Positions 10,116 to 32,452 are shown, counted from the first letter of the stretch. The stretch: 38,345 bases of DNA from Mageeibacillus sp. UBA5442 (GCA_002427475.1 DIRG01000012.1:1-38345), one strand, 5' to 3'. Numbers and translations: made by a program. Notes: a model not told the origin generated them from the letters alone.

Positions 10116-10121
10116 AAAGAG

Positions 10122-12654: not shown

Positions 12655-12682
12655 TTGACGGTCAATGTTAACATGTTATAAT
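12655..12682 (+). promoter_or_regulatory. Sigma-A promoter of nucleoside transporter operon 2 (TTGACG, 16-nt spacer, extended -10 TGtTATAAT)
   Basis: TTGACG at 12655-12660, TG at 12674-12675, TATAAT at 12677-12682. Two perfect palindromes overlap it (see findings). Confidence 0.6.
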
Positions 12683-12843
12683 CAATACAATAATACTGAT
12701 ATTACGATACTCGTTTTAATTTACTCAAATGGAAGGATGCTTTTTCTTAGCACCTTTATATATAAAAATTGCTCTTTCGATCGGGATAAGCCAAATCCCC
12801 GCAGGAGGTCAGGAGGACCCTCCTATGAAAGGATAGCCTAATT

Positions 12844-16557: not shown

Positions 16558-17882
16558 TGAGAATTTACGACCTAATTAAGAAGAAACGCGATGGCGGCGA
16601 ACATAGCAAAGAAGAACTGCGCTACATAATTGATGCCTATGTCGGCGATGAAATCCCTGACTATCAGATAGCGGCCTGGTTAATGGCTGTATATTTCCGC
16701 GGCATGAGCAAAGAGGAGACACTTGATTTTACTCAGGCTCTGGTCTTGTCCGGGGATCAGGTTGATTTATCCGCCATTGAGGGCATCAAAGTAGATAAGC
16801 ATTCCACCGGAGGAGTTGGTGATAAGACATCGCTGATCGTGGGGCCTATTGTTGCCGCTTGTGGAATGAAGGTAGCGAAAATGAGCGGTCGCGGACTTGG
16901 GCATACCGGAGGAACTCTAGATAAGTTGGAAGCGATTCCCGGACTTAAGACCGAACTGACAGATGAAGAATTCATCGAGCAGGTCCGAGACATCAGCATC
17001 GCGATTATAGGACAGACGGGGGACTTGGCTCCGGGGGACAAAAAGCTTTACGCCTTACGTGACGTGACCGCCACCGTGGATTCATTACCCTTGATCGCAG
17101 GTTCAATTATGAGTAAAAAGCTAGCCGCAGGCAGTGAGGCTATCATTCTTGATGTTAAATGCGGTAGCGGAGCTTTTATGAAGGAAGAGGCAGACGCAAT
17201 AGAGCTGGCACAGCTGATGGTCGATATCGGTGAAGGCGCCGGTCGTCGTACTGCTGCATTAGTCACGGATATGGACCGACCTCTAGGTCAGTGCATCGGC
17301 AATGCTATTGAAATTCTTGAAGTTATTGAGGTTTTAAAGGGAGGTGGTGCGGAAGATTTGAGGGAGCTCTGTCTGGAACTGAGCTCGAACTTACTGGCAT
17401 TGGCTGTAGCTGATCCCGAGCAAGATTACAGGGCGCTCGCTGAAGACGCTCTCGCATCCGGGAAGGCGCTGCAGTCGTTTGCTCAGATGATTGCAGCTCA
17501 AGGTGGAGATCCCGCGATTATAGAGGATCCCAGTCTCCTACCACAGCCGAAATACTCGGCGGAACTTATAGCATCACAAGAGGGCTGGATCAGCTCCATG
17601 GACACGGAGGCCTGCGGCATCGCATCGTCGATGCTGGGAGCAGGTCGCCTGAAGATGGATGATCAGATACAGCCTGCCGCAGGAATAAGACTTCACCGTC
17701 GCAGCGGTGAAAAGGTAGAAAAGGGTGAAATCCTCGCTGAGCTCTATACGGACGATGAGACACTTCTGTCCGCTGCAATGACAAAACTGAACTCGGCGTA
17801 TGGTTTTTCACAAGAAAAAGTAGAAAGAAAACCACTGATTCTCGCACGAGTGAGAAAAAATGAAGAAAGGTCATACAGCTGA
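16557..17882 (+). CDS. pdp: Pyrimidine-nucleoside (thymidine) phosphorylase
   Basis: 441 aa. Motifs DKHSTGGVGDKTSL and MSGRGLGHTGGTLDKLE. The start overlaps the upstream stop (TAATG). Confidence 0.9.
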   Translation: MRIYDLIKKKRDGGEHSKEELRYIIDAYVGDEIPDYQIAAWLMAVYFRGMSKEETLDFTQALVLSGDQVDLSAIEGIKVDKHSTGGVGDKTSLIVGPIVAACGMKVAKMSGRGLGHTGGTLDKLEAIPGLKTELTDEEFIEQVRDISIAIIGQTGDLAPGDKKLYALRDVTATVDSLPLIAGSIMSKKLAAGSEAIILDVKCGSGAFMKEEADAIELAQLMVDIGEGAGRRTAALVTDMDRPLGQCIGNAIEILEVIEVLKGGGAEDLRELCLELSSNLLALAVADPEQDYRALAEDALASGKALQSFAQMIAAQGGDPAIIEDPSLLPQPKYSAELIASQEGWISSMDTEACGIASSMLGAGRLKMDDQIQPAAGIRLHRRSGEKVEKGEILAELYTDDETLLSAAMTKLNSAYGFSQEKVERKPLILARVRKNEERSYS

Positions 17883-17928
17883 GTGTAGGCGGATAGGCAA
17901 AGCCTACTCTCGGCCTAAGGAGGTAGAA

Positions 17929-19059
17929 ATGAAAACTAAGAAATTTGTTGCCTTATTGTTGGCACTAGTAATGCTACTTGGCGTTGCTGCAGCCTGCAAC
18001 GGAGAAAGTGGAGATGATCTTCACAAGGAAGGAAGACAGGACGCAGATGGTAAAGCAGAAATTGCATTAATCACTGACGTAGGCACCATCGATGATAAGT
18101 CTTTTAACCAGGGATCCTGGGAAGGTGTTGTCAAATATGCTATAGATAATGACAAGACCTTTAAGTACTTTCAGCCCACTGAGAAATCAGACGCAGCTTA
18201 TATCAACTCTATCAACCTAGCGATAGAAGGCGGAGCAAAGATTATTGTGACGCCGGGTTTCCTCTTTGAGGGACCGATCCATACAGTGCAGGACCAATTC
18301 CCGGATGTCCACTTTATCCTGATTGACGGATATCCTCACGCGGGTGATTTTGTTCCGGACATTTCGGACAACGTTATTGGAATTCTCTACGCTGAAGAAG
18401 AGTCGGGCTATCTAGCCGGCTACGCAGCTGTACACGAAGGCTATCGTGACCTCGGCTTCATGGGCGGCATGGCGGTTCCCGCTGTTGTTCGCTTCGGCTA
18501 TGGTTTTCTGCAGGGAGCAGATGATGCCGCTGCCGAATTGAACTTGGCGGCTGGTGACATCAATGTTAAATACACATATGTAGGAAATTTTGATGCCACC
18601 CCGGAGAACGAATCAATGGCTGCCTCCTGGTTCCAGGAAGGCACTGAAGTAATCTTCGCTTGTGGCGGATCCGTCGGCACTTCTGTTATGAAGGCCGCTG
18701 AGAAAGCTGACACGAAAGTAATTGGTGTTGACGTTGACCAGTACGCTGAGTCCGATACCGTTATCACCTCTGCTATGAAGAACCTGGAAAAGTCGGTTAA
18801 TGATGCTATTGCCAGTATCTACGATGACAGCTGGGAAGGCGGCAGGGCTGTGACGCTCGACGCCACTGAAGGCTACACCATGATCTCTATGGAAAATGCT
18901 CGCTTTGAGAACTTCAGTCAGAGTGACTACGACGCTGTTTATCAGAAATTAGTTGACGGCTCCATCGACATCACCAAGGATCAAGATGAGAACGGTGAAC
19001 AGATTTTGGAACCGACAGAAATCGCACTGGACATCGTGGCAGTGGAAAACATCAAGTAA
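17929..19059 (+). CDS. BMP-family nucleoside-binding ABC lipoprotein, system 2
   Basis: Signal plus lipobox MKTKKFVALLLALVMLLGVAAAC, preceded by TAAGGAGGT. BMP core IALITDVGTIDDKSFNQGSWEGV and LYAEEESGYLAGYAA. Start set at ATG 17929 rather than the track's 17860. Confidence 0.85.
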   Translation: MKTKKFVALLLALVMLLGVAAACNGESGDDLHKEGRQDADGKAEIALITDVGTIDDKSFNQGSWEGVVKYAIDNDKTFKYFQPTEKSDAAYINSINLAIEGGAKIIVTPGFLFEGPIHTVQDQFPDVHFILIDGYPHAGDFVPDISDNVIGILYAEEESGYLAGYAAVHEGYRDLGFMGGMAVPAVVRFGYGFLQGADDAAAELNLAAGDINVKYTYVGNFDATPENESMAASWFQEGTEVIFACGGSVGTSVMKAAEKADTKVIGVDVDQYAESDTVITSAMKNLEKSVNDAIASIYDDSWEGGRAVTLDATEGYTMISMENARFENFSQSDYDAVYQKLVDGSIDITKDQDENGEQILEPTEIALDIVAVENIK

Positions 19060-19153: not shown

Positions 19154-21295
19154 TTAGCTTGCGATTGGGTTTCGCTGAAGCACAGGGGGTGTGGAACTTA
19201 AATCCCGAATGCGGAAGATGCGGAAGCAATTCAGGATGACCAAGAGAGTTACGCCGACATCAGCGAAAACTGCCAACCACATGGGCATGTAGCCGATTGT
19301 TGCTAAGAGGAGGAAGAGGAATTTCACTCCCAGTGCGAAGACTATGTTCTGACGTGCGATGCGCATGGTTTTTTTCGAAATCTTCAAACCCTTGAGCAGG
19401 GCGGACAGCTTGTCCTGCATGAGCACGACATCGGCCGCTTCTATTGCAGCGTCGCTGCCTAAGCCGCCCATGGCTACGCCTACATCTGCGATCATCAGAA
19501 CCGGAGCGTCGTTGATTCCGTCGCCGACAAAGCCGCTGCTACCGTTCGTTTCTTCGACTTTCGCTTTTTCCATCCAAGCCACTTTATCTTGAGGCAGCAA
19601 GGAGGCATGTACTTCTGCGATGCCGGCTTCCTTCGCAACTTCGCGGGCGAAAACTTCATTATCGCCGCTGAGAATTGCGATCCGCTCAACGCCTTCTTGG
19701 CGCAGTGCAGTTATGGTCTGTTGGGCTTCGTCCTTTAACTCGTCGCGGATGACGATGTGTCCCAGATAGCGGACCTTTTCCGCTGTAGGTACGGTGCTCA
19801 TTTCTTCATAGGTGCGCGTATCTCTGTAGGCGGGGATGATCGCCACATGGCTCATTGTCCATGCTTGGCCTTCACAGCCATCAGCGACAGCGCTTTCGTG
19901 TAACCCTAGCATTTTCATCAAGGCGGCATTGCCGAGATAGACGGTCGCCGGGAAGTCTACAGATAAATTCAAACCGTTGCTACTTTCGATCACGCCGCGG
20001 ATGCCGTGACCCGGAAGGGCGACGATGTCGGACAGACCTTCGGTAGATAAAGTGAAGCCGAGGGCTTCAGCGTGCTTGATGATGCTTTGGGCAATCGGGT
20101 GTGTAAAGCTCTGCTCTAATGTAGCGGCTAGTGCCACAAAGCGTTCTTCGTTAACATCTTCCTCAGCATGGGTGGCGATGACGCTGAATTCGCCTTTGGT
20201 CAGGGTTCCGGTCTTGTCAAAGGCCAGAGTCTTCAGGCGAGAGAGGTTCTCCAGATCGGTGCCGCCTCTGATGAGAACTCCGTGGCGCGAAGCCATGCCT
20301 AGGCCAGAAACGAAGGTGAGGGGAACCGAGATGACAAAGGCGCAGGGGCAGGAGACGACGAGGAAGGTGAGTCCGCGGTAAATCCAGGTCGAGAAATCTT
20401 GGCCGCTAAAGAGCAGGGGTGGAAGGACGGACACCAATAGTGCCAAAATCACGACGATCGGTGTATAGACACGCGAAAAGCGCCTGACTAACGTTTCGGA
20501 GTGGGCTTTACGCTGGGAAGCTTCTTCAACCATCGCCATAACGCGGCTGGCTGTTGATTCTGCATAGATAGTATCCGCTCTCATACGCAAGAGGCCGTCT
20601 CCGTTGACACTGCCGCTAAGAACCTTCGTGCCTGCGCTTGCCTCCAAGGGCAAGGCTTCACCGGTAATGGCTGCGGTATTGAGAGTGCTTCTGCCACTGA
20701 GAATAATTCCGTCGGTCGGGATAAGATCTCCCGCCTGAATCTCGAGAATGTCACCGATTGCGATGTTGACGGGGTCTATACGTTCGACTCCTTTTTCAGT
20801 GACGAGGTTGGCATAGGGAGCGGCAATATCCAAGAGGTCCGAAATCGATTTTTGCGATCTGCCGACGGCAAAATCTTCGAGGCGTTGGCCGATTTGATAG
20901 AGGATCATGACCAGAGCGGCCTCGGGATATTCACCTAGGATGACTGCGCCGACGGTGGCGACTGTCATGAGGAACTGCTCGTCGAGGATAAAGCCGGAGA
21001 AAAGTTTCTTCACTGCGCTGATCATGACTTCATAGCCGGCAAGGAGCCAGGCAAGAATTATCAAGGCGATGGAGACGGTGTCTTGGGCGAAAGCATATTT
21101 GAACAAAAGGCCAAGCAAGAAGGCGCCAATAGAAAGGAAGAGAAGGACAAGCTTAACGTTTGCCTGTCGCTCAGTTTTCGGCGGGGACTCATGACAACAG
21201 CCGCAGGAAGATAGGCCTCCCTGCGCTTCATTTGCACAGGAAAGGTCGACCTTGTGCTCTTCATGCTTTTCGTGAATTAGATTATTGTTTTGCAT
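19154..21295 (-). CDS. P1B-type heavy-metal-translocating ATPase, CPC type (Zn/Cd/Co/Pb class)
   Basis: Motifs DKTGTLT, GDGINDAP, TGEALP and the transmembrane SCPCAF. The last transmembrane segment reads ADVGVTLLVILN. No GMTCxxC ferredoxin-like domain is present. The N-terminus is instead His/Cys-rich (HEKHEEH, SSCGCCHE). Confidence 0.9.
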   Translation of the reverse strand: MQNNNLIHEKHEEHKVDLSCANEAQGGLSSCGCCHESPPKTERQANVKLVLLFLSIGAFLLGLLFKYAFAQDTVSIALIILAWLLAGYEVMISAVKKLFSGFILDEQFLMTVATVGAVILGEYPEAALVMILYQIGQRLEDFAVGRSQKSISDLLDIAAPYANLVTEKGVERIDPVNIAIGDILEIQAGDLIPTDGIILSGRSTLNTAAITGEALPLEASAGTKVLSGSVNGDGLLRMRADTIYAESTASRVMAMVEEASQRKAHSETLVRRFSRVYTPIVVILALLVSVLPPLLFSGQDFSTWIYRGLTFLVVSCPCAFVISVPLTFVSGLGMASRHGVLIRGGTDLENLSRLKTLAFDKTGTLTKGEFSVIATHAEEDVNEERFVALAATLEQSFTHPIAQSIIKHAEALGFTLSTEGLSDIVALPGHGIRGVIESSNGLNLSVDFPATVYLGNAALMKMLGLHESAVADGCEGQAWTMSHVAIIPAYRDTRTYEEMSTVPTAEKVRYLGHIVIRDELKDEAQQTITALRQEGVERIAILSGDNEVFAREVAKEAGIAEVHASLLPQDKVAWMEKAKVEETNGSSGFVGDGINDAPVLMIADVGVAMGGLGSDAAIEAADVVLMQDKLSALLKGLKISKKTMRIARQNIVFALGVKFLFLLLATIGYMPMWLAVFADVGVTLLVILNCFRIFRIRDLSSTPPVLQRNPIAS

Positions 21296-21325: not shown

Positions 21326-21664
21326 TTATTCATTGATGTGCTCTTTGCCGACATCATAAAGGACTACTACGTGATCATCTGAGAGGCTGTAATAGATATA
21401 TTTTCCATCTCGACGTGACTTTACAAGGTTGTTATGGCGGAGGAGGCGCAACTGATGGGATATGGCCGAATCAGAAAGTGAAAGCAGTTCGGCCAAGTCG
21501 CTGACACAAAGTTCGTTCAGACGCAAGGCAGCAATTATTTGAACACGTGTGCTGTCGCCCATAACGGAAAACAAGTCTGCCAGTCGCGACATCTCTTCAT
21601 CGTGAGGCATTTCCTCTCTGATCGCTGATAAGTCACAGCGACAGTCGCTTTCTTTCTGTGTCAT
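21326..21664 (-). CDS. ArsR/SmtB-family metalloregulator with a complete alpha5 site
   Basis: 112 aa. Winged helix ELCVSDLAELLSLSDSAISHQLRLL. The C-terminal DDHVVVLYDVGKEHINE matches DxHx10Hx2E. An N-terminal CRC pair is present. RBS AGGAGG lies 6 nt upstream. Confidence 0.9.
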   Translation of the reverse strand: MTQKESDCRCDLSAIREEMPHDEEMSRLADLFSVMGDSTRVQIIAALRLNELCVSDLAELLSLSDSAISHQLRLLRHNNLVKSRRDGKYIYYSLSDDHVVVLYDVGKEHINE

Positions 21665-21728
21665 TATGATCCTCCTGTTTGTATTGTTATTAAAATATCA
21701 TTTCGATACTTGCTCAAGTGTTAAATTG

Positions 21729-21757
21729 ATAATACGAAACATCGTCCCTTTTGTCAA
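21729..21757 (-). promoter_or_regulatory. Sigma-A promoter of the arsR-ATPase operon (TTGACA-17-TATTAT on the minus strand)
   Basis: Minus-strand TTGACA equals plus-strand 21752-21757; TATTAT equals plus-strand 21729-21734; the spacer is exactly 17 nt. The 5-2-5 palindrome ACTTGCTCAAGT (21708-21719) just downstream is a candidate operator. Confidence 0.6.
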
Positions 21758-21780: not shown

Positions 21781-21809
21781 TTGACGCTCTAATCCAGAAA
21801 AACTATACT
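21781..21809 (+). promoter_or_regulatory. Candidate promoter P1 upstream of the riboswitch (TTGACG-17-TATACT)
   Basis: TTGACG at 21781-21786, a 17-nt spacer, TATACT at 21804-21809. Confidence 0.45.
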
Positions 21810-21846
21810 TTAGCCACAAAGTCAATTTTCGTGCCAGGCACGAATC

Positions 21847-21873
21847 TTGACCACATAGAGTACAGATGATAAT
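21847..21873 (+). promoter_or_regulatory. Candidate promoter P2 immediately upstream of the riboswitch (TTGACC-15-GATAAT)
   Basis: TTGACC at 21847-21852 and GATAAT at 21868-21873. The spacing is short, but it places the start site at the 5' edge of the aptamer. Confidence 0.35.
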
Positions 21874-21875
21874 GA

Positions 21876-22076
21876 AAATTATCTGGGAAACAGGTGTGAA
21901 TCCTGTGCGGTGCCGCCGCTGTAAGCGATTTGATTAACTCTAGGCTCAGGCCAGCCACTGACGTTTTGTTGGGAAGGTGGGGTTAATGGTTTAAAACCGA
22001 TCGCAAGCCAGAAGACCGATCTGTATACTACAGAAGGATACAACGGAACATTGTTTCCCCTGAGCATGATATGTAT
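21876..22076 (+). promoter_or_regulatory. Cobalamin (B12) riboswitch
   Basis: Conserved core strings occur in the canonical order: GGGAA 21885, GGTG 21893, GAATCC 21898, CCGCCGCTGTAAG 21913-21925, GCCACTG 21954-21960, GGGAAGG 21971-21977, and the B12-box-like AAGCCAGAAGACC 22005-22017. The exact boundaries are approximate. Confidence 0.85.
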
Positions 22077-22112
22077 AAACGGCTACAAATCTAGGATTTG
22101 TAGCTGTTTTTT
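22077..22112 (+). terminator. Riboswitch expression-platform terminator
   Basis: Perfect 10-bp stem GCTACAAATC (22082-22091) / GATTTGTAGC (22095-22104), followed by TGTTTTTT. It lies 55 nt upstream of the ATG at 22167. Confidence 0.85.
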
Positions 22113-22166
22113 AATTTCTCAGGAGATAAAAGGAGACAAAAACTCATTATTTCGAAGGAGGAATTA

Positions 22167-24020
22167 ATGAAGAACAATTGGAGAAAGCATCTTGCTTTCA
22201 TCATCGCTTTTATTCTAATTCTGGCCACAGTGCTGCAAGCCTGCGCGCCGGCACAGACAGATCCTGACGGCAGTCAAACGATGGCAGATCCCACTGTGGA
22301 GTCAAGCTTGCCTTCTCAGCCAGTGGCAGAGACAGAAGTCAGCGAAGAACCTGATGGCGAGGAAGCGATCAGTGGCAGGTTCGTCCTTGCCGGAATCGCC
22401 GAGGATGCGAGCGCCGAGAATCCCTATCAGATCTGGCTGGATCTTCCCTTTTCTGCAGAAGAAGGCACTGATGCCTGGAGTCTGACCCAGGAGATTCTCG
22501 AAGAAAACGACTACGCTCTCGTCGAATCTGAATGGGGCAATCATATCCAAAAGCTCACTCCCCCCGCAGATTCCGGACAAGTCGAGGCCGAAGCCGCCGT
22601 GACGAATGGTCCCGATTCAAGCTGGATGTGGTCTTATAACGACAATGTCGATCAGCCTGCGCATGAATATTTGCTACAGGACGGTGACGTGATCCGCTGG
22701 TATTTCACCAATAACTGGGCTGATGACTACACTGGCCATCCCGAAACCCATTTTACTGACGAAGGCAATTCTGTGCAGGTCAAAGCCGATGCCGAAAGAC
22801 CTTCCGACTGGACAGCTTGGTGGTCCGCTTTTGCTTCTTCTATGGAGCACAACAACGTGAAAGAAATCGAACTCAGCCTCTCGGGCTTTGAGAGCGAAGA
22901 GCTCTTTACGTTCACACAAGAAGACGGAGACTGGTTCGATAGCTACTCAGATCCGCTACAGGTAGAAGAATGGATTTATCTGGTCTATTCCGACATTCTC
23001 TATAAAATCAATCAAGACGGAAGCATCGAAGATTCCGCTGCTCTGCAATTCCCGATCGATTCCAGTTCGCGCATAGCTTATGCCGACGGTCTCCTCTTAG
23101 TTCCCATGAAATACGGCAAAGTCCAAGCTCTGACTGCAGACAATTTGACTACAGCCTGGATTTCCGCTGCAGCCACCCAGATACTAGTGGAAGCCGAAGA
23201 CAGCCCGGGCAGCAAAGTGCCACATTTTCAGCAATCACTTAGCTCCCTGACTGTCGCGGATGGCCTTGTCTACCAAGCTCTCTGCACTGTCGGTTGGAGT
23301 GAACGCTCTTTCGGCGGCAGCTTTCGCGCGCTGGACCTAAATGACGGCAGCGTTGTCTGGGACTACAGTTCGGATGAGTCCGGCTTTTATTGGACCGGTG
23401 GAGCTATCCATGAAGACAGAATTTACGTCGGCAACGACAATGGTGAAATCATTGCCTTTGACCGCTTGACGGGAGAAATCCTTGAACAAAGCAGCTTACC
23501 CGCAGTAGATGGTCAGCCAGCTGCGATTCGTTCCAACATCGTGCTTCAGGACGACTTCCTCTTCTTTGTCTCAAAGGACGACGGCAGCCTCAATCGCATC
23601 GAAATTACTGACGGTAAATTGGGCAATCTCGAGCGCGTGCAATTCAGCGACAGCAGTACGGCCTCACCCACTATTCACGACGGCAAGGTTTATGTCGCCG
23701 GCAATAACAGCTTAGCTATCATCGATGCCGAGAGTATGCAGATTGAAAAAACTTACGAAATCGAAGGTTACATCCAGTCCACACCGCTCGTGCTCGAAGA
23801 CGGCAGCGGACGCGTATTTGTATATTTCACGATCAATAATGAAACAGGCGGCATCTACGGCGTCGCCACAGACAGTGACACAGTTCACACGGTTTTTACA
23901 CCTCACGAATCGCAGCAGAACTATTGTATGGCGACAGTGTCCGTGTCTCCCGACGGGACGCTCTACTACACGAATGATTCCCATACCTTCTTTGCGGTGC
24001 AATTGTTGGGGCTTAATTAA
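22167..24020 (+). CDS. Secreted lipoprotein: transcobalamin-like (DUF4430) domain fused to a PQQ/BamB-like beta-propeller
   Basis: Signal plus lipobox ILATVLQAC. Residues about 70-190 end in the DUF4430 signature SWMWSYNDNV...LLQDGDVIRWYF. The C-terminal half has repeated blade motifs (ADGLVYQA, EDRIYVGNDNGEIIAFDRLTGE, DGKVYVAGNNSLAIIDAES, PDGTLYYTN). RBS GAAGGAGG. Confidence 0.7.
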   Translation: MKNNWRKHLAFIIAFILILATVLQACAPAQTDPDGSQTMADPTVESSLPSQPVAETEVSEEPDGEEAISGRFVLAGIAEDASAENPYQIWLDLPFSAEEGTDAWSLTQEILEENDYALVESEWGNHIQKLTPPADSGQVEAEAAVTNGPDSSWMWSYNDNVDQPAHEYLLQDGDVIRWYFTNNWADDYTGHPETHFTDEGNSVQVKADAERPSDWTAWWSAFASSMEHNNVKEIELSLSGFESEELFTFTQEDGDWFDSYSDPLQVEEWIYLVYSDILYKINQDGSIEDSAALQFPIDSSSRIAYADGLLLVPMKYGKVQALTADNLTTAWISAAATQILVEAEDSPGSKVPHFQQSLSSLTVADGLVYQALCTVGWSERSFGGSFRALDLNDGSVVWDYSSDESGFYWTGGAIHEDRIYVGNDNGEIIAFDRLTGEILEQSSLPAVDGQPAAIRSNIVLQDDFLFFVSKDDGSLNRIEITDGKLGNLERVQFSDSSTASPTIHDGKVYVAGNNSLAIIDAESMQIEKTYEIEGYIQSTPLVLEDGSGRVFVYFTINNETGGIYGVATDSDTVHTVFTPHESQQNYCMATVSVSPDGTLYYTNDSHTFFAVQLLGLN

Positions 24021-24031
24021 GGAATGATTTT

Positions 24032-24517
24032 ATGCCGGTAAAGATAAGAAAAAAAGATAAGCAGCGTTCTGATCTCCGCCTTCTGACGCTGCTTCTAGTA
24101 CTCATTCTTCTAGTCGCAACTGCTTGCCAGAGCCAGGAGGAGGCAGTCTCGGAAGGCAGTATCGAGGTTCTCCTGTCCGTTGATTGCAGCAATGCAGTAG
24201 CGGCGGGGGTGCCGGGAGCAGATACCTACGAGCCGGATGGTGCTGTTTTAACTGAGGCTAAGATCCTCGTGGCTGAGGAGAGCTCCGTCTTGGATACACT
24301 GCAAGCGAGCGATTTGATCGTCAACACCAGCACGGCTGTCCTCGGCGTTTACGTAAAGAGTATCCAAGGGATCAGCGAAGGCAAAGGGGGCTGGATTTTC
24401 TCTATAAATGGAGAATTCCCGCATACATCAGCTTCGAATGTGCCTGTTGAAGCGGGCGACGAAGTAGCCTTTTATTACACCGTGACTCCGGGCGATGTGC
24501 CCGGCTCACCCTACTAA
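24032..24517 (+). CDS. Small DUF4430 (transcobalamin-like C-terminal domain) lipoprotein
   Basis: Signal plus lipobox LLVATAC. Carries the signature GKGGWIFSINGEFPHTSASNVPVEAGDEVAFYY. Confidence 0.7.
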   Translation: MPVKIRKKDKQRSDLRLLTLLLVLILLVATACQSQEEAVSEGSIEVLLSVDCSNAVAAGVPGADTYEPDGAVLTEAKILVAEESSVLDTLQASDLIVNTSTAVLGVYVKSIQGISEGKGGWIFSINGEFPHTSASNVPVEAGDEVAFYYTVTPGDVPGSPY

Positions 24518-24553
24518 AGCTTGTGCTTAAAAAGCGCAGCTAGGACGAAAGAT

Positions 24554-27256
24554 ATGCAGACTGGAAAACGAAAAAAGGTTAATTTGCGGGCGACACATCC
24601 CGCGCTATTGATACTCTATTTTTTCTCAGCAATAGTCTTTTCTATGTTGACGCTTAATCCTGCCTATCTTCTAATATCCTTCATTGCGGCACTCTGCCTG
24701 AATTTCTATCTGGAGGGTGTAGTGAAAACACTGCGTTTTCTCCGCTATTTCGTGCCGGTGCATTTGCTCCTGGTGCTAGCTAATGCACTTTTCAGCGGCA
24801 ATGGGCTTACCGTCATCTTTTACCTGCGCGGGCGGCCTGTAACGCTGGAGAGCATTGTCTTCGGATTTGCGGCCGGTCTGATGCTGCTAACGATCCTGCT
24901 CTGGTTTCGCGCCTATCAGGAAGTCTCCAGCTCGGATCAAATAATTGCCATGGGCGGGAAGCGCTTTCCACAGACCAGCTTGCTGCTGGGCATGATACTG
25001 CGCTACGTGCCGGACACCCTTCAGCATGGTCAGAAAGTTAAGATGAGTCAGAATGCGCTCGTCGGGACAGAGAAGCTGCCGCGGAAGGAAAGGCTCGCTT
25101 TCTACACGAGGATGTCTACGGTCCTCATGAGCTGGAGTATGGAAAATGCTCTGGATACTAGTATCGCCATGCGGGCGAAAGGTTTCCCTTCAGAACAGCG
25201 CAGCAGCTATAAACGCGAACGCTTCAGCAGCTATGACGCCGTCGGAGTGGCCTTTCTTCTGCTCATGATTCTGCTGCAAATAGTAGGCTACGCTAGGGGT
25301 TTGACCGCGTTCCAATATTATCCAATTTTGAACTGGCAGACGGAGATGAGCAGCGAACTGATAGTGATCTTGACTGTGTATGCGCTCTTCTTGTTTTTCC
25401 CCTTTTATGTGGAGCTGGCCGACTGGTGGAGCCTCAAAAAGATCAGGCGAGCCGAAGAACAATTTAGTAACGAGCGCTTGAATCCTTGGCAGGCGCAAGA
25501 GAGCGGAGAGAGAAGTCAGGAGAAAGAGACGATTGTGAAGAAGAAGGAAAATGCACAGAGGATTGCTCCTCGAAGCGAATACCAAAGCGATTGCTACGAC
25601 TCGGTCTACGCTGTTGAACTTGAGGATCTGTCTTTTACTTATCCGAACTCCGGGCAGAAGGCCCTGGACAATCTCTCTTTGCGCTTTGAACGTGGGAGTC
25701 TTATCCTCCTGACCGGAGCGTCAGGCAGCGGAAAAACGACCCTACTACGCGTGCTTGCTCCTGTTTTGACACCGGCGGGAGAGCTGAACGGCAACAGAAT
25801 TATTTACGGGGAAGAGGCTGCGAGCTACGAAAGCGCTGAAAAAACTGTGCAAATCGGTTTCGTGCAGCAAAATCCGGACAATCAGATTATTCTCGATAGT
25901 GTTTGGCACGAGCTGGCTTTCGGGCTGGAGAATAAAGGATTGTCTCAGCAGGACATCGAAAGGCGCTTAGCAGAAACCTCCACCTTTTTCGGTATCAGCG
26001 ATTGGATGGATCGCAAGGTGTCCGAATTATCAGGAGGCGAAAAACAGATCCTCAATCTCGCATCCAGCCTTGTGATGCAGCCGGACTTGCTGCTCTTGGA
26101 TGAGCCGATAGCCCAACTCGACCCCATCTCCCGCAAGCGCTTTCTCTCTTTGCTGGGGCGTGTTCACGATGAAACGGGAACCACCATTGTCATCTCAGAA
26201 CATGTCATTGACGATATCTTGCCGCACGCAGATAGTGTCATACAGTTGGAGGCTGGAGCGGTGAGCTTTTCTGGTGGGGTCGAAGCCTATCTGAGACATT
26301 TGACCGCTACGGACGATAAATTTCAGATTTCGATCCCCTTATCTGCGCGCATGGTAGCGCAGAACGGCGCCGGCAGCGAAGGTGAAACAGAAGCAGCCCT
26401 GCCTCTGACGGTGCGTGCTGGCAGGCAGTTTTTGCAAAAACACAAAGCCGAACTGGCAACAAAACCCGAAACCCCGACCCCTACTTCGCTCGATCTGAGC
26501 CAACGTACAAATATCCTAGAGGCGCGAGATCTCTGGTTCCGCTACGAAAAGGACGCGCCTTTTGTCCTGCGCGGAGCCTCTCTAACAATTAAAGAGGGCG
26601 AGTTGCATGCCCTTCTGGGTGGCAATGGCTCCGGCAAAAGCACATTGATGTATATTTTAAGTCGCAGCTTGCCGGCCCTACGCGGCAAGATAGTCAGGGC
26701 ACCTGGTCAGGAAGTTGCCATGTTGAATCAGAACCCAATGTCGGTGTTTTCGCAGGACAGCGTCCGAGCTGAACTGATGGAGTTTCGCCAGCGCTTTTCC
26801 TACGATGAGAGCGACGTAAACTCCATCATGGAGCGTCTCAATCTGACTCATTTGGCCGAGCGACATCCCTACGATCTGTCCGGCGGAGAAATGCAGAAAA
26901 CGGCCTTGGCTAAAGCGCTTCTGACGAAACCGAACTTGCTCTTGTTAGATGAACCGGTAAAAGGCTTAGATCCCGTAGCCAGACGCGAGCTCTCGCAGAT
27001 ATTAGTCGAATTGAAAGAAAGCGGAATGACGATGATTCTCATCACGCATGATTTAGATTTCATCTCACAACTGGCAGACCGCTGCTCCCTCATCTTCGAC
27101 GGCCGCGTGGAAGGAACAGCCGATAGTAGAGAGTTCTTCGCAGACAATGCCTATTTCACGACGACAGCCCGCCGTTTGAGCAAGGGCATCCTGCCCGACA
27201 TCGTGACCGAAGACGACTTGCTCGAGCGCCTGCGCTCGCTAAACGATAGGAGCTGA
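24554..27256 (+). CDS. Fused ECF transporter module: T component (EcfT/CbiQ-like) plus two ATPase domains (EcfA-EcfA')
   Basis: The N-terminal roughly 300 aa is polytopic. Two full ABC domains follow: GASGSGKTT/LSGGEKQ/LLLLDEP and GGNGSGKST/LSGGEMQK/LLLLDEP. Start set at ATG 24554 (the track uses TTG 24521), so the start is uncertain. Confidence 0.8.
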   Translation: MQTGKRKKVNLRATHPALLILYFFSAIVFSMLTLNPAYLLISFIAALCLNFYLEGVVKTLRFLRYFVPVHLLLVLANALFSGNGLTVIFYLRGRPVTLESIVFGFAAGLMLLTILLWFRAYQEVSSSDQIIAMGGKRFPQTSLLLGMILRYVPDTLQHGQKVKMSQNALVGTEKLPRKERLAFYTRMSTVLMSWSMENALDTSIAMRAKGFPSEQRSSYKRERFSSYDAVGVAFLLLMILLQIVGYARGLTAFQYYPILNWQTEMSSELIVILTVYALFLFFPFYVELADWWSLKKIRRAEEQFSNERLNPWQAQESGERSQEKETIVKKKENAQRIAPRSEYQSDCYDSVYAVELEDLSFTYPNSGQKALDNLSLRFERGSLILLTGASGSGKTTLLRVLAPVLTPAGELNGNRIIYGEEAASYESAEKTVQIGFVQQNPDNQIILDSVWHELAFGLENKGLSQQDIERRLAETSTFFGISDWMDRKVSELSGGEKQILNLASSLVMQPDLLLLDEPIAQLDPISRKRFLSLLGRVHDETGTTIVISEHVIDDILPHADSVIQLEAGAVSFSGGVEAYLRHLTATDDKFQISIPLSARMVAQNGAGSEGETEAALPLTVRAGRQFLQKHKAELATKPETPTPTSLDLSQRTNILEARDLWFRYEKDAPFVLRGASLTIKEGELHALLGGNGSGKSTLMYILSRSLPALRGKIVRAPGQEVAMLNQNPMSVFSQDSVRAELMEFRQRFSYDESDVNSIMERLNLTHLAERHPYDLSGGEMQKTALAKALLTKPNLLLLDEPVKGLDPVARRELSQILVELKESGMTMILITHDLDFISQLADRCSLIFDGRVEGTADSREFFADNAYFTTTARRLSKGILPDIVTEDDLLERLRSLNDRS

Positions 27257-27258
27257 AG

Positions 27259-27978
27259 ATGATTAAGCCAGAGCGCAGCCCACAGCAAGCCGACTCCTAT
27301 ATGCACCTGCCGGCGATCTTCTCTTTGATCCTACTACCGGTGGCGCTCTTGCTCCTGGCCTACTATCAGGTGGAACAGACAGCTCTCTTGTCTTTTGTGG
27401 CGGTGATCGCTGCACTCTTGCCCTTTTTTATCAGCTTTGAAAGACGCAAACTGGCTGTGCGCAACTTGCTCCCGATAGTAGTGATGACCGCTCTGGCAAG
27501 CGCCGGCCGTCTACTCTTCGCTGCTGTTCCTGGCTTCAAACCTGTTCTAGCGATCATCATCGTGACGGCCATAAGTTTCGGTCCCGCTAGCGGCTTTATG
27601 ACGGGTGCTCTAACTGCCCTAGCCTCGAATCTGTTTTTTGGTCAAGGACCTTGGACTCCTTGGCAAATGTATGCTTTCGGACTTATTGGCTATCTAGCCG
27701 GCCTGCTGCAAGAGAAGGCTGCGTTCAAACGTCCGCTTTTCGTGTATATCTATGGTTTCTTCTCCGCCTTTCTTTACGGCATCATCCTCGACACCTGGCA
27801 TGTCATCAGCTTTTTGAAGCCGATCACTTGGCAAGGAGCTATACTCGTGTTCGGCCAAGGTGCGATCTTTAACTTTCTCTTAGCTGTAGCGACGGTGGTT
27901 TTTCTTATTCCGATCAGAGCTCCTTGGACTCGCCAGCTTGAACGCATTAAGCAGAAATTCGGCCTTACTGCCGGCTGA
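27259..27978 (+). CDS. ECF transporter S (substrate-capture) component, candidate corrinoid-specific (CbrT-like role)
   Basis: 239 aa and entirely hydrophobic, with about 6 transmembrane segments. AGGAG RBS 6 nt upstream. It lies immediately after the T-A-A' gene and under the B12 riboswitch. Confidence 0.65.
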   Translation: MIKPERSPQQADSYMHLPAIFSLILLPVALLLLAYYQVEQTALLSFVAVIAALLPFFISFERRKLAVRNLLPIVVMTALASAGRLLFAAVPGFKPVLAIIIVTAISFGPASGFMTGALTALASNLFFGQGPWTPWQMYAFGLIGYLAGLLQEKAAFKRPLFVYIYGFFSAFLYGIILDTWHVISFLKPITWQGAILVFGQGAIFNFLLAVATVVFLIPIRAPWTRQLERIKQKFGLTAG

Positions 27979-28192
27979 TATTTTCAACTTTTCTCGGCTC
28001 ACGGGCCATAAATCATGAAAGATTACTCTGCTCATTTGGGAAAGAGCACATTTACTACACGCTAGTTTGGGCGAACGTGCTAAAATACTTGTGTATGCGT
28101 AATTAGCAACACTGTATAGAACTGCTCGCATGTCTTGCATCTGCAAGCACGTGCATGAAATAAAGGAACAATTGGAAGGAGATATTGTCCTG

Positions 28193-29542
28193 ATGAAATT
28201 AGAAGCAAAAAGAATTAAACGACATATGGTCAGAACTTATGAATTTTGGCAGATGAATCTGCGCATCTTGGTTATCGCAGAGGACCAAAAGAAAGTCTTG
28301 GAGGATTTTGAGGATAAGCTGCCGGCGAGTGATAGCGGCTATCTGGCTTTTGCTTATCTAGATAACGAACTTCGCATAGCTTTCCTAGGAACAAGCGACG
28401 ACGAGACTGATGAATACGAATTTTTCGATACAAAAGAGATCTTCACCATTCCGGCATCTGCTGTGCCAACCCTCTTGGTTCGCCTCGTGAAACTTAATGC
28501 AGAATTGGCTGAGAATGCTTTCATTCAACAGGCAATACAGGAACAGGCTAACAAAGCTTTGCCCATGAGCACGCTCACAATTCGCGCTCTCGATTCCTCA
28601 CGCGATCCCGAAATACCTACTCGATTAAGAGCCTTCCGGATTGAAGACGAGAAGAAAATCCAAGAGCTTATAGAGCTTGATGCGATGCGGCAAGCGGCCT
28701 TGGAAGAAGCGGAAGAAAAAGCTGCCGCCGCCGCCAAGAAGGCGAAGAAAGCTAAGAAAAGGAATCGCGAAGAATTGGAAGAAGCAGCTGAAGCTGCTGA
28801 AGACGAGATCGAAGAAGTTTATGAGGACGAAAGCCTCATGCTCGAGATAAATATCGCGGACGAGTTGGCGAAATCCTTAGAAACCCTCTGGGTGTACGAC
28901 CTGACTCCGGCCAATAATGGCGCTTGGCGAGCAAATCTGGAAGCGAACCTCAAAGGTTCCAAGTTAAAGGCCAACGATTTGGTTCATATAGAATTACGCT
29001 TTGTGGAAAGAGAAGATGACGAAATCGCTCTTGTCTTTGTCGATCCCGAAGCAGAGGTCGAAGATATTAAGATTGAAGTCAGCTCGCATGTCGCCACCAG
29101 ATTACCTTGGCGTAAGGCTTATGAGTTGGAATGTTTGGAAAACCATGACTTCCACGAGACCTATTACCTGGGACGCAACGGCGAAGATAGCAAGCTGTTC
29201 AACAAGATAGTCGCCGACATTCGCCATGGTCGTTTGGATCCGGCTATGTATCTGGATATGGTGCAAAAAGAAGACGTCTCACTTGATTTCTCTCGCGAAC
29301 TCTATCGTTGCCGTCACTGCGGCGATCTGCATGTAACTAGGCGCTTACGTTTGGTGACACCGGAAAGTACCATGTCCGAACCCTATTACTGTCCCAAATG
29401 CGGCGAGCGCTCTTCACAGGTGAAGCGCGTACATATCGCATCGTTGAATTGTCCTGTCTGTCACAGACCCTTAGATATGAAACCGGAAAAGGTTTGGTAT
29501 GCGTCAGATGAAGAGGACGACAGCATCTTGCTGGAGGAATAA
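28193..29542 (+). CDS. Hypothetical protein: N-terminal unknown domain, E/K/A-rich charged helix, C-terminal triple-CxxC zinc-ribbon region
   Basis: GGAAGGAGA RBS at 28174-28182 supports ATG 28193 (the track starts at 28130). CRHC, CPKC and CPVC lie in the last 90 aa. Low-complexity EEAEEKAAAAAKKAKKAKKRNREELEEAAEAAEDE sits mid-protein. I recognise no family. Confidence 0.6.
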   Translation: MKLEAKRIKRHMVRTYEFWQMNLRILVIAEDQKKVLEDFEDKLPASDSGYLAFAYLDNELRIAFLGTSDDETDEYEFFDTKEIFTIPASAVPTLLVRLVKLNAELAENAFIQQAIQEQANKALPMSTLTIRALDSSRDPEIPTRLRAFRIEDEKKIQELIELDAMRQAALEEAEEKAAAAAKKAKKAKKRNREELEEAAEAAEDEIEEVYEDESLMLEINIADELAKSLETLWVYDLTPANNGAWRANLEANLKGSKLKANDLVHIELRFVEREDDEIALVFVDPEAEVEDIKIEVSSHVATRLPWRKAYELECLENHDFHETYYLGRNGEDSKLFNKIVADIRHGRLDPAMYLDMVQKEDVSLDFSRELYRCRHCGDLHVTRRLRLVTPESTMSEPYYCPKCGERSSQVKRVHIASLNCPVCHRPLDMKPEKVWYASDEEDDSILLEE

Positions 29543-30675: not shown

Positions 30676-31200
30676 ATGATTTTCGAAATACCGAGCAAGT
30701 CCGAAATGAAGACTAATTTCCATATCGGCACTCATGTTGATGCCCCTTACCACATGCAGGAGAACGGCAAGAAGATGGTCGAGATGGATCTGAAACTCTA
30801 TTATGGTCCTAGCACGGTCTATGATTTGACAGAACTTGAAGATGCCATTAATCGTTCCGATCTGGAAAAGCTAGAGCTTCAGCCCGATGACATCGTGCTC
30901 TTCAAAACCCGCAATTCTTATGATGACGCTTGGAATCCAAAGTTCGTTTATCTGGCACCTGATGCTGCTCGTTACTTGGCGGAGATCGGCGTGCGCAGCG
31001 TAGCCTTGGACGCCATGAGCATAGAACGTAATACTGAAGATCACGAAACTCATCACATCCTCTTTGACGCCGGCATTGGCCTAATTGAAGACGTACGCCT
31101 CGCAGATGTTCCTGCAGGCCGCTACACGCTCAGCGCCTTGCCTTTGGCAATGACTGAGGCCGAAGCTTCACCCACCAGGGCCATACTTATCGAGGAATAG
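30676..31200 (+). CDS. Cyclase-family protein (arylformamidase / kynurenine formamidase-like). The N-terminus is displaced by an apparent frameshift
   Basis: HIGTHVDAPYH metal motif. The frame stays open upstream to 30601 and encodes the family N-terminus IYDISRPLNDETAVY. The RBS-served ATG at 30611 is in another frame (see finding). Confidence 0.7.
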   Translation: MIFEIPSKSEMKTNFHIGTHVDAPYHMQENGKKMVEMDLKLYYGPSTVYDLTELEDAINRSDLEKLELQPDDIVLFKTRNSYDDAWNPKFVYLAPDAARYLAEIGVRSVALDAMSIERNTEDHETHHILFDAGIGLIEDVRLADVPAGRYTLSALPLAMTEAEASPTRAILIEE

Positions 31201-32452
31201 TCACGTCGCCTTTGGCGATAATATCGATCACGTTATCGATCGAGGCAATTAGATCGGCGTCTATCTCGTCGGCGTAGTCTTCCACGACGATTAATTCTTC
31301 TTTTACCCCACAGGAAATGCTCTCCTCGGATAGTTCTCCGCTGCGGAAAAGCTCGTAGGCGTAGAGGAAAGCTTCGCCCCTCTTGAGCAGGACCTTAGCA
31401 CTCACAGGATCATAAAAAAGATTAGGATCATCCTGAGGCTCATTTGGACGAGTAGCTCCCGGGGACCAGGACGGCACTGTGCCTGCGGTCGGAATAGGAG
31501 CCGGCGTTGTCTCGCTTTCAGTCTCGTTCGTTGTCTCGCTTTCCATCTCAGCAGTACTTTCGTCCGGATCATCCTCGCCCTCGTTCGGCTCAGTGGGTTC
31601 ATTCACGGGATTTGGCAGTTTCACATCAGCTTCCGTGCTTACAATTACCAAGCCCGCTTCTCGCGCCTCATACATAGCGCTGGCGGATGCCCCTCCGGCC
31701 ATAATCGCCAGTATGGCAGGTTCGTAATTTGCGATCAGTTGCTCAGTTTGAATCGAAGCGTCCTTTTGCTCGAAATCCAATTCAACACTATGCACACGCG
31801 CAGAAGGGTTCACGTAATTTGCTCCTGCTGTAAAAGCTTCGGTGAAGGCGATCTCAGAGTTTTCCGGATATTTGGCGACTAGGCCGATGTCATCTTCCTG
31901 AGAAAGGACAGAACTTACAGCTCCGAGCAAGAAGCTTTGCTCTTCTTCTCTGAAGTTAATGCTGACTAGGTTCGGAAGTGTTGTCTCGCCCCCCGCAAGA
32001 AAGAACATGGTCTCGGAGTTATCCTCAGCGATCTCTAAGGCTGCTTCGCTGAAAAGTGGAGAGTCGAAAAAGATGACCTTATATCCTGCTCTGATCAAGC
32101 GCTCAACTATAGCAGAAGCGGCTGACGGCAGTACGTTTTCCACGTATCTGCACTCCGCGTTGCCGGCGGCAATCAGCTGCAGCCCGCGGTATGTGTCTGC
32201 TCCGGAGTCGCTCGTTATAGACTCAGCCATTATGAAGGCTACTTGATCGCGTTCGCCGGGCTCAAGGAAGCCAGGTGTCCGATCTTCTGTCCGAGGATTC
32301 TTCGTCGTATCCGGCCCGGAAGGCTCTTCTTCCGGATCACAAGCTGCCATTGTCAGCAGCGAAAATATCATTAATAGAAGCAGAAAGAAAACGCCACAAT
32401 AGTCGCACTTTCTCCTGAATGTTGTTTTTTTATTTTTCAAATTATGCATCAC
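31187..32452 (-). CDS. Divergent BMP-like / type I periplasmic-binding-fold lipoprotein, orphan
   Basis: Signal plus lipobox LLTMAAC. Segments VAFIMAESITSDSG and NFREEEQSFLLGAVSS are colinear with the two BMP proteins. A roughly 60-aa acidic Thr/Glu/Pro-rich insertion lies near the C-terminus. AGGAG RBS. Confidence 0.6.
   Translation of the reverse strand: MMHNLKNKKTTFRRKCDYCGVFFLLLLMIFSLLTMAACDPEEEPSGPDTTKNPRTEDRTPGFLEPGERDQVAFIMAESITSDSGADTYRGLQLIAAGNAECRYVENVLPSAASAIVERLIRAGYKVIFFDSPLFSEAALEIAEDNSETMFFLAGGETTLPNLVSINFREEEQSFLLGAVSSVLSQEDDIGLVAKYPENSEIAFTEAFTAGANYVNPSARVHSVELDFEQKDASIQTEQLIANYEPAILAIMAGGASASAMYEAREAGLVIVSTEADVKLPNPVNEPTEPNEGEDDPDESTAEMESETTNETESETTPAPIPTAGTVPSWSPGATRPNEPQDDPNLFYDPVSAKVLLKRGEAFLYAYELFRSGELSEESISCGVKEELIVVEDYADEIDADLIASIDNVIDIIAKGDVTIPR

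Follow-up and report, generated by a model that had tools for sequence, protein, structure and literature searches.

A cobalamin-riboswitch operon encoding DUF4430 surface proteins and a CbrT-type ECF transporter, a candidate system for corrinoid capture in Gram-positive bacteria

What is taken up through an operon that stands behind a cobalamin riboswitch, encodes an ECF importer, and devotes its first two genes to proteins predicted to be anchored on the outside of the cell? The question is raised by a locus from Mageeibacillus sp. UBA5442, found within a window of 38,345 nucleotides (the whole stretch of DNA that was analyzed). A review of September 2026 considered that extracellular cobamide capture by Gram-positive bacteria "remains entirely uncharacterized" (PMC13616437), and Rodionov et al. 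(2019) described the identification of B12 transporters in many gut genomes as an open problem (PMC6593275). The operon is quite probably a B12-repressed one, by which an uncultured Clostridia-type bacterium would scavenge corrinoids through surface capture combined with a CbrT-type ECF importer. The family to which it belongs is a concrete, testable candidate for the gap in Gram-positive capture, consisting of one or more surface binders and a dedicated ECF-CbrT importer.

The locus contains the following features, as predicted from the sequence:

21781..21809, + strand: sigma-70-like promoter, TTGACG-17 nt-TATACT (consensus scan, 10/12; putative function)
21847..22038, + strand: cobalamin riboswitch aptamer, long form (Rfam RF00174)
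22036..22058, + strand: small conserved hairpin between aptamer and terminator (RNAalifold columns 199-222)
22077..22115, + strand: intrinsic terminator with a 15-bp stem (22077-22109) and a 3-nt loop, then a T run
22167..24020, + strand: gene 1, 617-aa surface lipoprotein with predicted signal peptide and lipobox LQAC
24032..24517, + strand: gene 2, 161-aa lipoprotein with lipobox ATAC and C-terminal DUF4430, CbrS-like
24554..27256, + strand: gene 3, EcfT-EcfA-EcfA' fusion (alternative TTG start at 24521)
27259..27978, + strand: gene 4, CbrT-family S component of an ECF transporter (239 aa, the first ~60 forming an N-terminal extension)

The leader carries an RNA of a known family. All 189 positions of the Rfam cobalamin model align with the aptamer, whose score of 86.9 bits (E 2.8e-20) exceeds the gathering score of 31.5, and the Rfam search found no match besides RF00174 in the rest of the window. 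The initial annotation had recognized a cobalamin riboswitch from characteristic strings at 21885-22017 and had proposed a covariance-model scan; the scan agrees with it, and since RF00174 matches 21847-22038, those strings sit within the true aptamer. The orthologous gene in loci L006, L008, L010, and L011 is likewise preceded by an Rfam cobalamin riboswitch (75.6-79.9 bits), and the leader of L008 keeps both promoter hexamers. Within the small hairpin, RNAalifold pair 204/218 alternates between G-C and A-U. The terminator stem shows compensatory changes across four orthologous leaders, at alignment pairs 256/274, 257/273, 259/271, and 262/268; the perfect 10-bp terminator seen earlier turns out to be the core of this longer stem. 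It is the OFF arm of the predicted switch. No antiterminator was identified in the leader. The pairing of GATTTG with CAAATC that had been offered for that role is not conserved: L008 and L013 lack GATTTG, though they keep the CAAAT arm.

Beyond the terminator lie four closely packed genes, separated by gaps of 11, 36, and 2 nt. The second gap is measured to the ATG at 24554. A mechanically called reading frame begins at the TTG at 24521, and the homologues of gene 3 begin at ATG, which supports the start at 24554. Domain and profile matches bear out the identities first given to the four genes. The same is true of the dedicated (group I) arrangement, in that the predicted S component is encoded with T and A components of its own.

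The identity of the S component points to corrinoids. As a single sequence, its residues 67-235 match residues 9-177 of CbrT (6fnp_A) at E 9.5e-7, and the family profile does so at E 1.3e-12. CbrT is its only solved relative and sole PDB sequence match, the next coming at E 0.2. The alignment by hhalign with a Lactobacillus CbrT homologue has a probability of 96.7% (27% identity), and Pfam ECF-ribofla_trS (PF07155) is matched at 29.2 bits (cutoff 26.7). The L. delbrueckii transporter, ECF-CbrT, moves both cobalamin and cobinamide (Santos et al. 2018, PMC5997447). The remainder of the importer would come from gene 3, whose product joins an N-terminal membrane T domain (~330 aa) to a pair of ABC ATPases (Pfam ABC_tran, twice). 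It matches NCBIfam ECF_ATPase_1 (TIGR04520, E 1.7e-84) and ECF_ATPase_2 (TIGR04521, E 7.5e-83) at scores somewhat under the equivalog cutoffs (283 vs 315 bits and 278 vs 330 bits, respectively). The T domain has no Pfam match, CbiQ being absent even at E 1; a profile of eight T-domain sequences matches the EcfT chains 4hzu_T, 4huq_T, and 5d3m_D over nearly their full length (E 3-5e-9), and the motif AMRAxG, a candidate for the Ala-Arg-Gly coupling motif of EcfT, is invariant in the family. By these signs the domain looks like a divergent EcfT. In distant loci, T is a separate gene. The CbrT-type S component, the T and A genes that accompany it, and the cobalamin riboswitch all favor the earlier reading of the locus as a group I style ECF corrinoid importer.

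The two surface proteins share a domain. In protein 2, DUF4430 (PF14478) is found at 43.8 bits against a cutoff of 23.8 (3.5e-11), and all orthologues of the protein have either a lipobox cysteine or an N-terminal membrane anchor. Protein 2 also resembles the DUF4430 lipoprotein encoded beside CbrT in Lactobacillus (BLASTP E 4e-5). The gene order in Lactobacillus is RNR-II, DUF4430 lipoprotein, CbrT, PduO, equal to that of the cluster named nrdJ-cbrS-cbrT-pduO (PMC5997447), so that CbrS is a DUF4430 lipoprotein. Transcobalamins have DUF4430 as their C-terminal domain (PMC4350170). In the PDB, the match of the DUF4430 profile to the beta domain of transcobalamin-2 is weak (E 0.39). To our knowledge, binding to the nucleotide side of the corrinoid is known just for vertebrate proteins of the DUF4430 type.

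Protein 1 consists of a DUF4430-like domain (approximately residues 66-185) followed by an eight-bladed, BamB-like propeller (approximately 230-617). Taken alone, its N-terminal DUF4430 scores 15.7 bits, under the Pfam cutoff of 23.8; the domain is above threshold in the eight protein 1 homologues listed, and the two DUF4430 profiles built in this study recognize each other's proteins. Pfam PQQ_2 matches residues 385-611 (5e-17). An AlphaFold model was built from 13 sequences (pLDDT 79.7), and Foldseek matched the propeller to BamB at E 6e-17 with a target TM-score of about 0.8. A propeller homologous to BtuG of Bacteroides was considered and rejected, as the resemblance in both sequence and fold is to BamB: a PDB search with the propeller family profile returned BamB, designed Cake proteins, and PQQ dehydrogenases, with no match to BtuG at E up to 10, and BtuG was absent from the top 50 Foldseek matches, which were all BamB or tetrathionate hydrolase. 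Homology therefore provides no precedent for the binding of B12 by this propeller. In most homologues of protein 1, a C-terminal LPATGE sortase signal replaces the lipobox. Clustered at 50% identity, the DUF4430-propeller family falls into at least 1,100 clusters, and the current annotation of the large propeller family is only "PQQ-binding-like beta-propeller repeat protein"; no published description of a DUF4430-propeller protein was found.

The operon is one of many. At least 585 species-level loci encode the S family, and gene order was compared in the best 80 of these, where it runs [propeller or toroid]-DUF4430-T-AA'-S. The order recurs in Clostridia and Coriobacteriia, and the module is present in the cultured gut Coriobacteriia Gordonibacter pamelaeae, Slackia, Olsenella, and Raoultibacter. 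Three accessory layouts are interchangeable: DUF4430 alone (18 loci, in which the propeller is dispensable), toroid plus DUF4430, and propeller-DUF4430 plus DUF4430. Since a secreted alpha/alpha-toroid protein fills the position of gene 1 in sister operons (11 loci), the propeller appears to be an alternative partner module. Surface anchoring is kept across the family by differing means (lipobox, LPxTG, SLH, or membrane helix). A cobalamin-riboswitch-like element lies directly upstream, on the same strand, in 36 of the 52 loci with a visible 5' end, as counted with a covariance model built in this study whose lowest matches (20-30 bits) are marginal. By type of locus, the element is found in 17/17 with propeller, 7/9 with toroid, 10/15 with DUF4430 only, and 2/11 with the core only. 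The other 16 loci show no riboswitch, 12 of them being negative also by Rfam at the gathering score.

Corrinoid uptake is the best-supported function of the operon, and well supported, given the homology to CbrT, the DUF4430 domains, and the riboswitch-like element upstream in relatives. Transcription would start near 21815. At high cellular cobalamin, the aptamer would bind the cofactor and the 15-bp terminator would halt transcription, while at low cobalamin, read-through would permit the expression of all four genes. The products of genes 3 and 4, EcfT fused to EcfA-EcfA' and the CbrT-type S component, would form a dedicated ECF importer that spends ATP to move cobalamin or cobinamide through the membrane. 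Proteins 1 and 2 would be lipid-anchored at the outer face of the membrane, and both have DUF4430, the fold that transcobalamin has as its beta domain and that CbrS has in Lactobacillus. There they may capture extracellular corrinoids and hand them to CbrT, with the propeller perhaps closing the binding site from the other side or giving reach through the wall. The accessory proteins are not essential to transport itself, because ECF-CbrT is functional in E. coli without CbrS (PMC5997447).

Perhaps the operon imports corrinoids and the propeller lipoprotein does not bind them, the ligand being left to DUF4430. The propeller might then be a scaffold or spacer, like BamB in BAM, that keeps the DUF4430 domain off the membrane or organizes a surface complex, or it might act on foreign carriers, as an enzyme or a receptor, to strip them of corrinoids. 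Such a role would be in keeping with a fold and sequence like those of BamB and PQQ-type eight-bladed propellers and not of BtuG, with the great size of many homologues, which are anchored to the wall, measure 1,500-3,000 aa, and carry additional repeats (giant DUF4430-propeller forms are present in Eggerthellaceae), and with the survival of the operon in the DUF4430-only loci. It is made unlikely by the sister operons, which carry in the same position an alpha/alpha-toroid domain, by fold the partner that closes over B12 in transcobalamin and therefore suggestive of a partner in contact with the ligand. Moreover, about 55 propeller positions are invariant among sequences only 27-30% identical, and the faces of a propeller are capable of binding B12, as in BtuG (PMC6143338).

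One may also ask whether the ligand is a corrinoid at all. The only experimentally studied operon with such a layout (S, AA', T, and a beta-like protein in common), lsa1836-1840 of L. sakei, has been linked to heme and not to B12: the deletion mutant had reduced heme uptake, and heme could be docked into modeled alpha- and beta-like proteins (Verplaetse et al., bioRxiv 10.1101/864751). Import of heme or another non-corrin tetrapyrrole by the present operon is nonetheless very improbable, for it and most of its relatives are linked to a cobalamin riboswitch and not to an iron or heme regulator, the one solved relative of the S component is a transporter of cobalamin and cobinamide, and in Lactobacillus the DUF4430-CbrT pair is flanked by a B12-dependent reductase and a cobalamin adenosyltransferase. 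Import of cobalt or nickel, akin to that by CbiMNQO, is scarcely credible. CbiMNQO is also an ECF system and is commonly under B12 riboswitches, for example in C. difficile (PMC11477304), and cbiO-type models of NCBIfam match the ATPase domains of gene 3, but such matches are generic to ECF systems, CbiM and CbiN are absent, the S component matches CbrT and not CbiM, and no role with metal ions is known for DUF4430.

If the operon does serve corrinoid scavenging, a role would be assigned to CbrS and to the large propeller family, and the L. sakei "heme" system might deserve re-examination as a corrinoid system. Systems of this kind were partly known before, but the version with a DUF4430-propeller protein is unstudied and occurs widely among Gram-positive bacteria. 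A more speculative proposal, plausible enough to entertain but somewhat more doubtful than not, is that DUF4430-propeller proteins are the Gram-positive counterpart of Bacteroides BtuG/BtuH, having arisen independently by the joining of a domain like transcobalamin beta to an unrelated propeller of eight blades, and that they capture corrinoids very tightly at the cell surface and relay them via a CbrS-like lipoprotein to ECF-CbrT. Among Clostridia and Coriobacteriia living in guts and digesters, a major part of the competition for cobamides would then run through them.

The initial annotation had taken the combination of proteins to be undescribed. That is too broad, since ECF transporters accompanied by extracytoplasmic proteins resembling B12 binders are known from the Lactobacillus CbrT cluster and the L. 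sakei operon; still new are the DUF4430-propeller partner and the fusion of EcfT with A-A'. One close relative is ECF-CbrT of L. delbrueckii (PDB 6FNP), with homology along the entire S component, ATPases of the same families, and an EcfT that by profile is also of the same family. The Lactobacillus cluster also has a small DUF4430 lipoprotein gene beside the S gene. In the operon considered here, however, the ECF module is dedicated and operon-encoded, T and A-A' form a single protein, DUF4430 occurs in two proteins, one of which also carries the propeller, and the S component is extended at its N terminus by ~60 aa. Furthermore, the operon has a cobalamin riboswitch, whereas the covariance model built in this study finds none at the Lactobacillus CbrT locus.

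The L. sakei operon, compared by its published description, has five genes, three for the ECF part (S, T, and a fused A-A') and two for secreted proteins, one resembling transcobalamin beta and the other transcobalamin alpha, a layout common to the toroid-type sister operons. Verplaetse et al. deleted these genes, read the outcome as heme uptake, and mentioned no riboswitch; extracellular scavengers feeding an ECF S component were already proposed there (bioRxiv 10.1101/864751). The operon in the window is not of the Lsa1836-1840 type, as no toroid protein is encoded, the DUF4430-propeller fusion occupying the position of the alpha-like toroid.

BtuG and BtuH of Bacteroides are surface-exposed lipoproteins from riboswitch-controlled B12 transport loci, BtuG being a B12-binding beta-propeller and BtuG1 such a propeller fused to a second B12-binding domain (PMC6143338, PMC8941943, PMC10404256). 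The fusion in BtuG1 parallels the propeller plus DUF4430 of protein 1. The BtuG propeller is seven-bladed, in contrast to the eight BamB/PQQ-like blades of protein 1, and the transporter downstream differs as well, being BtuB in Bacteroides and here an ECF system of a cell that lacks an outer membrane. The resemblance is at most one of functional analogy. The mammalian carriers transcobalamin, intrinsic factor, and haptocorrin have DUF4430 as their C-terminal (beta) domain, and their two-domain layout recurs, split, in the toroid-type sister operons. The toroid is absent from the window, and in contrast to the mammalian carriers, the bacterial domains reside on separate proteins anchored to the membrane or the wall.

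The cobalamin riboswitch proposed in the initial annotation is borne out by Rfam, whose RF00174 model matches with 189 of its 189 positions aligned and is the sole RNA family reported anywhere in the window. The four packed genes described behind it were likewise found, all on the + strand. They encode, in order, a lipoprotein with a DUF4430-like domain and a propeller (protein 1), a DUF4430 lipoprotein (protein 2), a predicted EcfT fused to the ATPase pair EcfA-EcfA' (protein 3, T-AA') and an S component (protein 4, S).

Features of the riboswitch operon and its surroundings
19154-21295, - strand: P-type (E1-E2) ATPase, upstream of the operon and divergent from it
21326-21664, - strand: ArsR-family regulator, also upstream and divergent
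21781-21809, + strand: promoter-like TTGACG-17-TATACT, also kept in one orthologous leader
21847-22038, + strand: cobalamin riboswitch RF00174 (Rfam, 86.9 bits against a gathering score of 31.5, E 2.8e-20)
22077-22109, + strand: intrinsic terminator, 15 pairs followed by a T run
22167-24020, + strand: gene of protein 1 (617 aa), then an 11-nt gap
24032-24517, + strand: gene of protein 2 (161 aa), then a 36-nt gap
24554-27256, + strand: gene of protein 3, from an ATG start (the mechanical ORF opens at TTG 24521), then a 2-nt gap
27259-27978, + strand: gene of protein 4 (239 aa), the final operon gene
28130-29542, + strand: 470-aa protein, no family match except a weak C-terminal zinc-ribbon signal

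The terminator that had been placed after the aptamer is present, and its stem covaries: when the leader is aligned to those of four orthologous loci, two-sided changes preserve the pairing at 4 positions. The antiterminator suggested along with it, GATTTG pairing with CAAATC, had to be given up, since GATTTG is absent from two related loci (L008 and L013) although both retain the CAAAT arm. No other antiterminator was identified; the top alternative partner of the terminator 5' arm is the invariant GCCGC in the aptamer core, whose pairing is weak (-8 to -14 kcal/mol). There is also a perfect palindrome, TTCGTGCCAGGCACGAA (21828-21844), after the predicted promoter and ahead of the aptamer, but L008 and L011 do not conserve it. 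Farther upstream, a 26-nt block, TTGCTCAAGTGTTAAATTGATAATAC (21706-21735), recurs almost unchanged in L008 and L011, both of which also have the ArsR gene; it is probably the promoter or operator of the ArsR/P-type ATPase operon.

Protein 4 has a single match among PDB sequences, 6FNP chain A, the B12-specific S component CbrT of Lactobacillus delbrueckii (E 9.5e-7 alone, 1.3e-12 as a profile). About 60 aa at the N terminus of protein 4 (27259-27450), including one or more additional hydrophobic segments, have no counterpart in the CbrT of 6FNP (182 aa); relatives of the protein share this extension. Protein 3 has two ECF-type ATPase domains. Its N-terminal membrane domain, about 330 aa, matches no Pfam family, CbiQ included; a T-domain profile built from 8 sequences, in which an AMRAxG motif is invariant, finds in the PDB the EcfT of 4HZU, 4HUQ and 5D3M/6FNP (E 3-5e-9). 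In distant loci T is encoded separately, the T-AA' fusion occurring only among the window's close relatives.

The signal peptide of protein 1 terminates in a lipobox, LQAC. Its N-terminal DUF4430-like domain scores 15.7 bits in this protein alone, under the 23.8-bit cutoff, which is exceeded in eight listed homologues, and Pfam PQQ_2 covers residues 385-611. AlphaFold gave a pLDDT of 37 from the single sequence, so a model from a 13-sequence alignment was used instead (pLDDT 79.7, pTM 0.68). With it, Foldseek found 8-bladed BamB propellers in the PDB (E 6e-17, target TM-score about 0.8), and the family profile matched only BamB and PQQ-type proteins among PDB sequences. Homology to BtuG, the surface B12-binding propeller of Bacteroides, was dismissed, as it appeared neither in that profile search nor among the top 50 Foldseek matches. 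Surface display of the family is, on the predicted signals, conserved despite differing anchors, since a C-terminal LPATGE sortase signal stands in for the lipobox in most homologues. An exhaustive profile search yielded relatives in at least 1,100 clusters (50% identity, E 1e-30 or lower). In the majority of the best 150, DUF4430 domain and propeller are both covered, and lengths of 1,500-3,000 aa are frequent. NCBI labels the homologues only "PQQ-binding-like beta-propeller repeat protein".

Protein 2, also a lipoprotein (lipobox ATAC), contains a clear DUF4430 domain at 43.8 bits. By sequence, DUF4430 proteins find only transcobalamin-2 in the PDB, at E 0.39. In 11 loci the first position is taken by a secreted protein, 590-1,950 aa in length, that contains an alpha/alpha-toroid domain of the prenyltransferase/squalene-cyclase type. 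The sequence matches of its profile are squalene-hopene cyclases, transcobalamin not being among them; the link to the alpha domain of transcobalamin comes from a shared fold class and from HHpred in the study of L. sakei by Verplaetse et al. (bioRxiv 10.1101/864751). In a Thermoleophilia MAG (L054; features 214-386, 528-3737 and 9785-11200), both the DUF4430 and the toroid accessory proteins bear S-layer homology domains, and a second cobalamin riboswitch lies directly 3' of the S gene, followed by a BtuF-like Peripla_BP_2 gene. In Limosilactobacillus reuteri, a 202-aa protein encoded close to cbrT and pduO (L094, 6768-7376, - strand) has Pfam matches to an AraC-type HTH and DUF4430, an unusual combination that may be a gene-call artefact beside IS elements.

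A scan with the S-component profile, one genome per species, found at least 585 loci. The best 80 belong to Coriobacteriia (Gordonibacter, Eggerthella, Slackia, Raoultibacter, Olsenella, Collinsella) and Clostridia (Oscillospiraceae, Christensenella, Clostridium collagenovorans). Carriers in culture include Gordonibacter pamelaeae, Clostridium collagenovorans DSM 3089, Slackia faecicanis and Olsenella porci. Gene order among these 80, called with HMMs from our own alignments, is propeller protein, DUF4430 protein, T, AA' and S in 25 loci; the first gene is missing in 18, and T-AA'-S stands alone in 13.

Riboswitches or riboswitch-like elements recur through much of the family. Rfam places RF00174 ahead of the propeller gene in four loci (L006, L008, L010 and L011) and finds no riboswitch in L004. 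In L001 (7837-7975) and L003 (5292-5454) it gives only sub-threshold AdoCbl-II matches (28.4 and 27.9 bits vs 36.5), in the expected position and strand, directly 5' of the operon. A covariance model was built on the orthologous aptamers and refined once using its own matches. Across 83 loci it gave 43 matches, of which 42 lie on the operon strand, and it placed the element directly upstream in 36 of the 52 loci with a visible operon 5' end. By type, matches occurred in 17/17 propeller, 7/9 toroid, 10/15 DUF4430-only and 2/11 core-only (T-AA'-S) loci; 12 loci with no match have no cobalamin riboswitch at the Rfam gathering score either. The lowest matches, at 20-30 bits, are marginal; where they lie, and on which strand, speaks for most of them being genuine. 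Many Coriobacteriia operons have directly 5' of them cobalamin-riboswitch-like elements of 100-140 nt that fall below the Rfam gathering threshold, and short riboswitches of the L001/L003 type may be under-annotated in that class. L038 (features 2247-2363 and 6558-9023) has two riboswitch-like elements, one before DUF4430-T-AA'-S and one 3' of the S gene. Since the second immediately precedes a separate propeller-DUF4430 gene, the propeller gene can form a riboswitch-controlled unit of its own. L070, a T-AA'-S locus with no riboswitch detected, carries a Collinsella-1 RNA (RF01700, Rfam, 37.2 bits vs 35) at 4605-4782, immediately 3' of S.

The operon is taken to end at S, because no conserved B12-related gene was found downstream in the compared loci, where the genes encode a sigma factor, nitroreductase, Sua5, GNAT, HAD or MTHFR. 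The 470-aa gene, 151 nt past S and ahead of an asparaginase gene, is probably outside the operon, as this pair follows the operon only in the close relatives L012 and L013, not in distant loci. Elsewhere in the window, an orphan Peripla_BP_2 (BtuF/FepB-type) binding protein (2948-4231, + strand, 427 aa, TTG start) has neither adjoining permease genes nor a riboswitch. Nucleoside ABC transporters of the Bmp/PnrA type occur as two paralogous sets (4466-19059, + strand; 31187-32452, - strand), each comprising one binding protein, one double ATPase and a pair of permeases. With the interleaved purine and pyrimidine nucleoside phosphorylases, S-adenosylhomocysteine hydrolase, amidohydrolase and Ldh_2 dehydrogenase, they form a large nucleoside-salvage island.

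In the mechanism proposed here, B12 would repress the operon through an OFF switch acting by transcription termination, and the switch would govern a dedicated ECF-CbrT corrinoid importer together with two surface-anchored DUF4430 proteins. Both of these, we infer, capture corrinoids and hand them over to the S component, with the propeller as a substitute for the toroid partner. A corrinoid substrate and B12 regulation are strongly implied. Perhaps the propeller, whose matches are to BamB and PQQ-type proteins, is instead a scaffold or an enzyme and not a binder, but this is unlikely. As to substrate, the L. sakei ECF system lsa1836-1840 has secreted transcobalamin beta- and alpha-like proteins for which extracellular scavenging of heme was proposed by its authors (bioRxiv 10.1101/864751). 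For an operon with an RF00174 leader and a CbrT-like S component, heme is very improbable and cobalt scarcely credible. The initial annotation's interpretation is supported in part: a dedicated ECF importer operon behind a cobalamin riboswitch stands, with corrinoid capture by surface proteins as the favored role; its antiterminator and the full extent of its claim to an undescribed system do not.

The L. delbrueckii ECF-CbrT imports both cobalamin and cobinamide, and its gene belongs to the cluster nrdJ-cbrS-cbrT-pduO (PMC5997447). The Lactobacillus locus recovered here (CbrT 65% identical) encodes a class II ribonucleotide reductase, a DUF4430 lipoprotein (131 aa, lipobox LTGC), CbrT and the adenosyltransferase PduO. 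CbrS is therefore identified with the DUF4430 lipoprotein in that position, which is related to protein 2 of the window (E 4e-5). Since this cluster and lsa1836-1840 have been described, the broad concept of extracytoplasmic transcobalamin-like proteins working with an ECF importer is already known; the part of the novelty claim that survives concerns the DUF4430-propeller family, for which a literature search found no paper, nor any on a B12 link. No new principle is involved. Extracellular cobamide capture in Gram-positives was called uncharacterised by a 2026 review (PMC13616437), and this large unstudied family makes an open question of cobamide ecology directly testable. Set beside ECF-CbrT with its CbrS/DUF4430 accessory, which is partly known, what is novel here is the propeller-DUF4430 partner and the T-AA' fusion.
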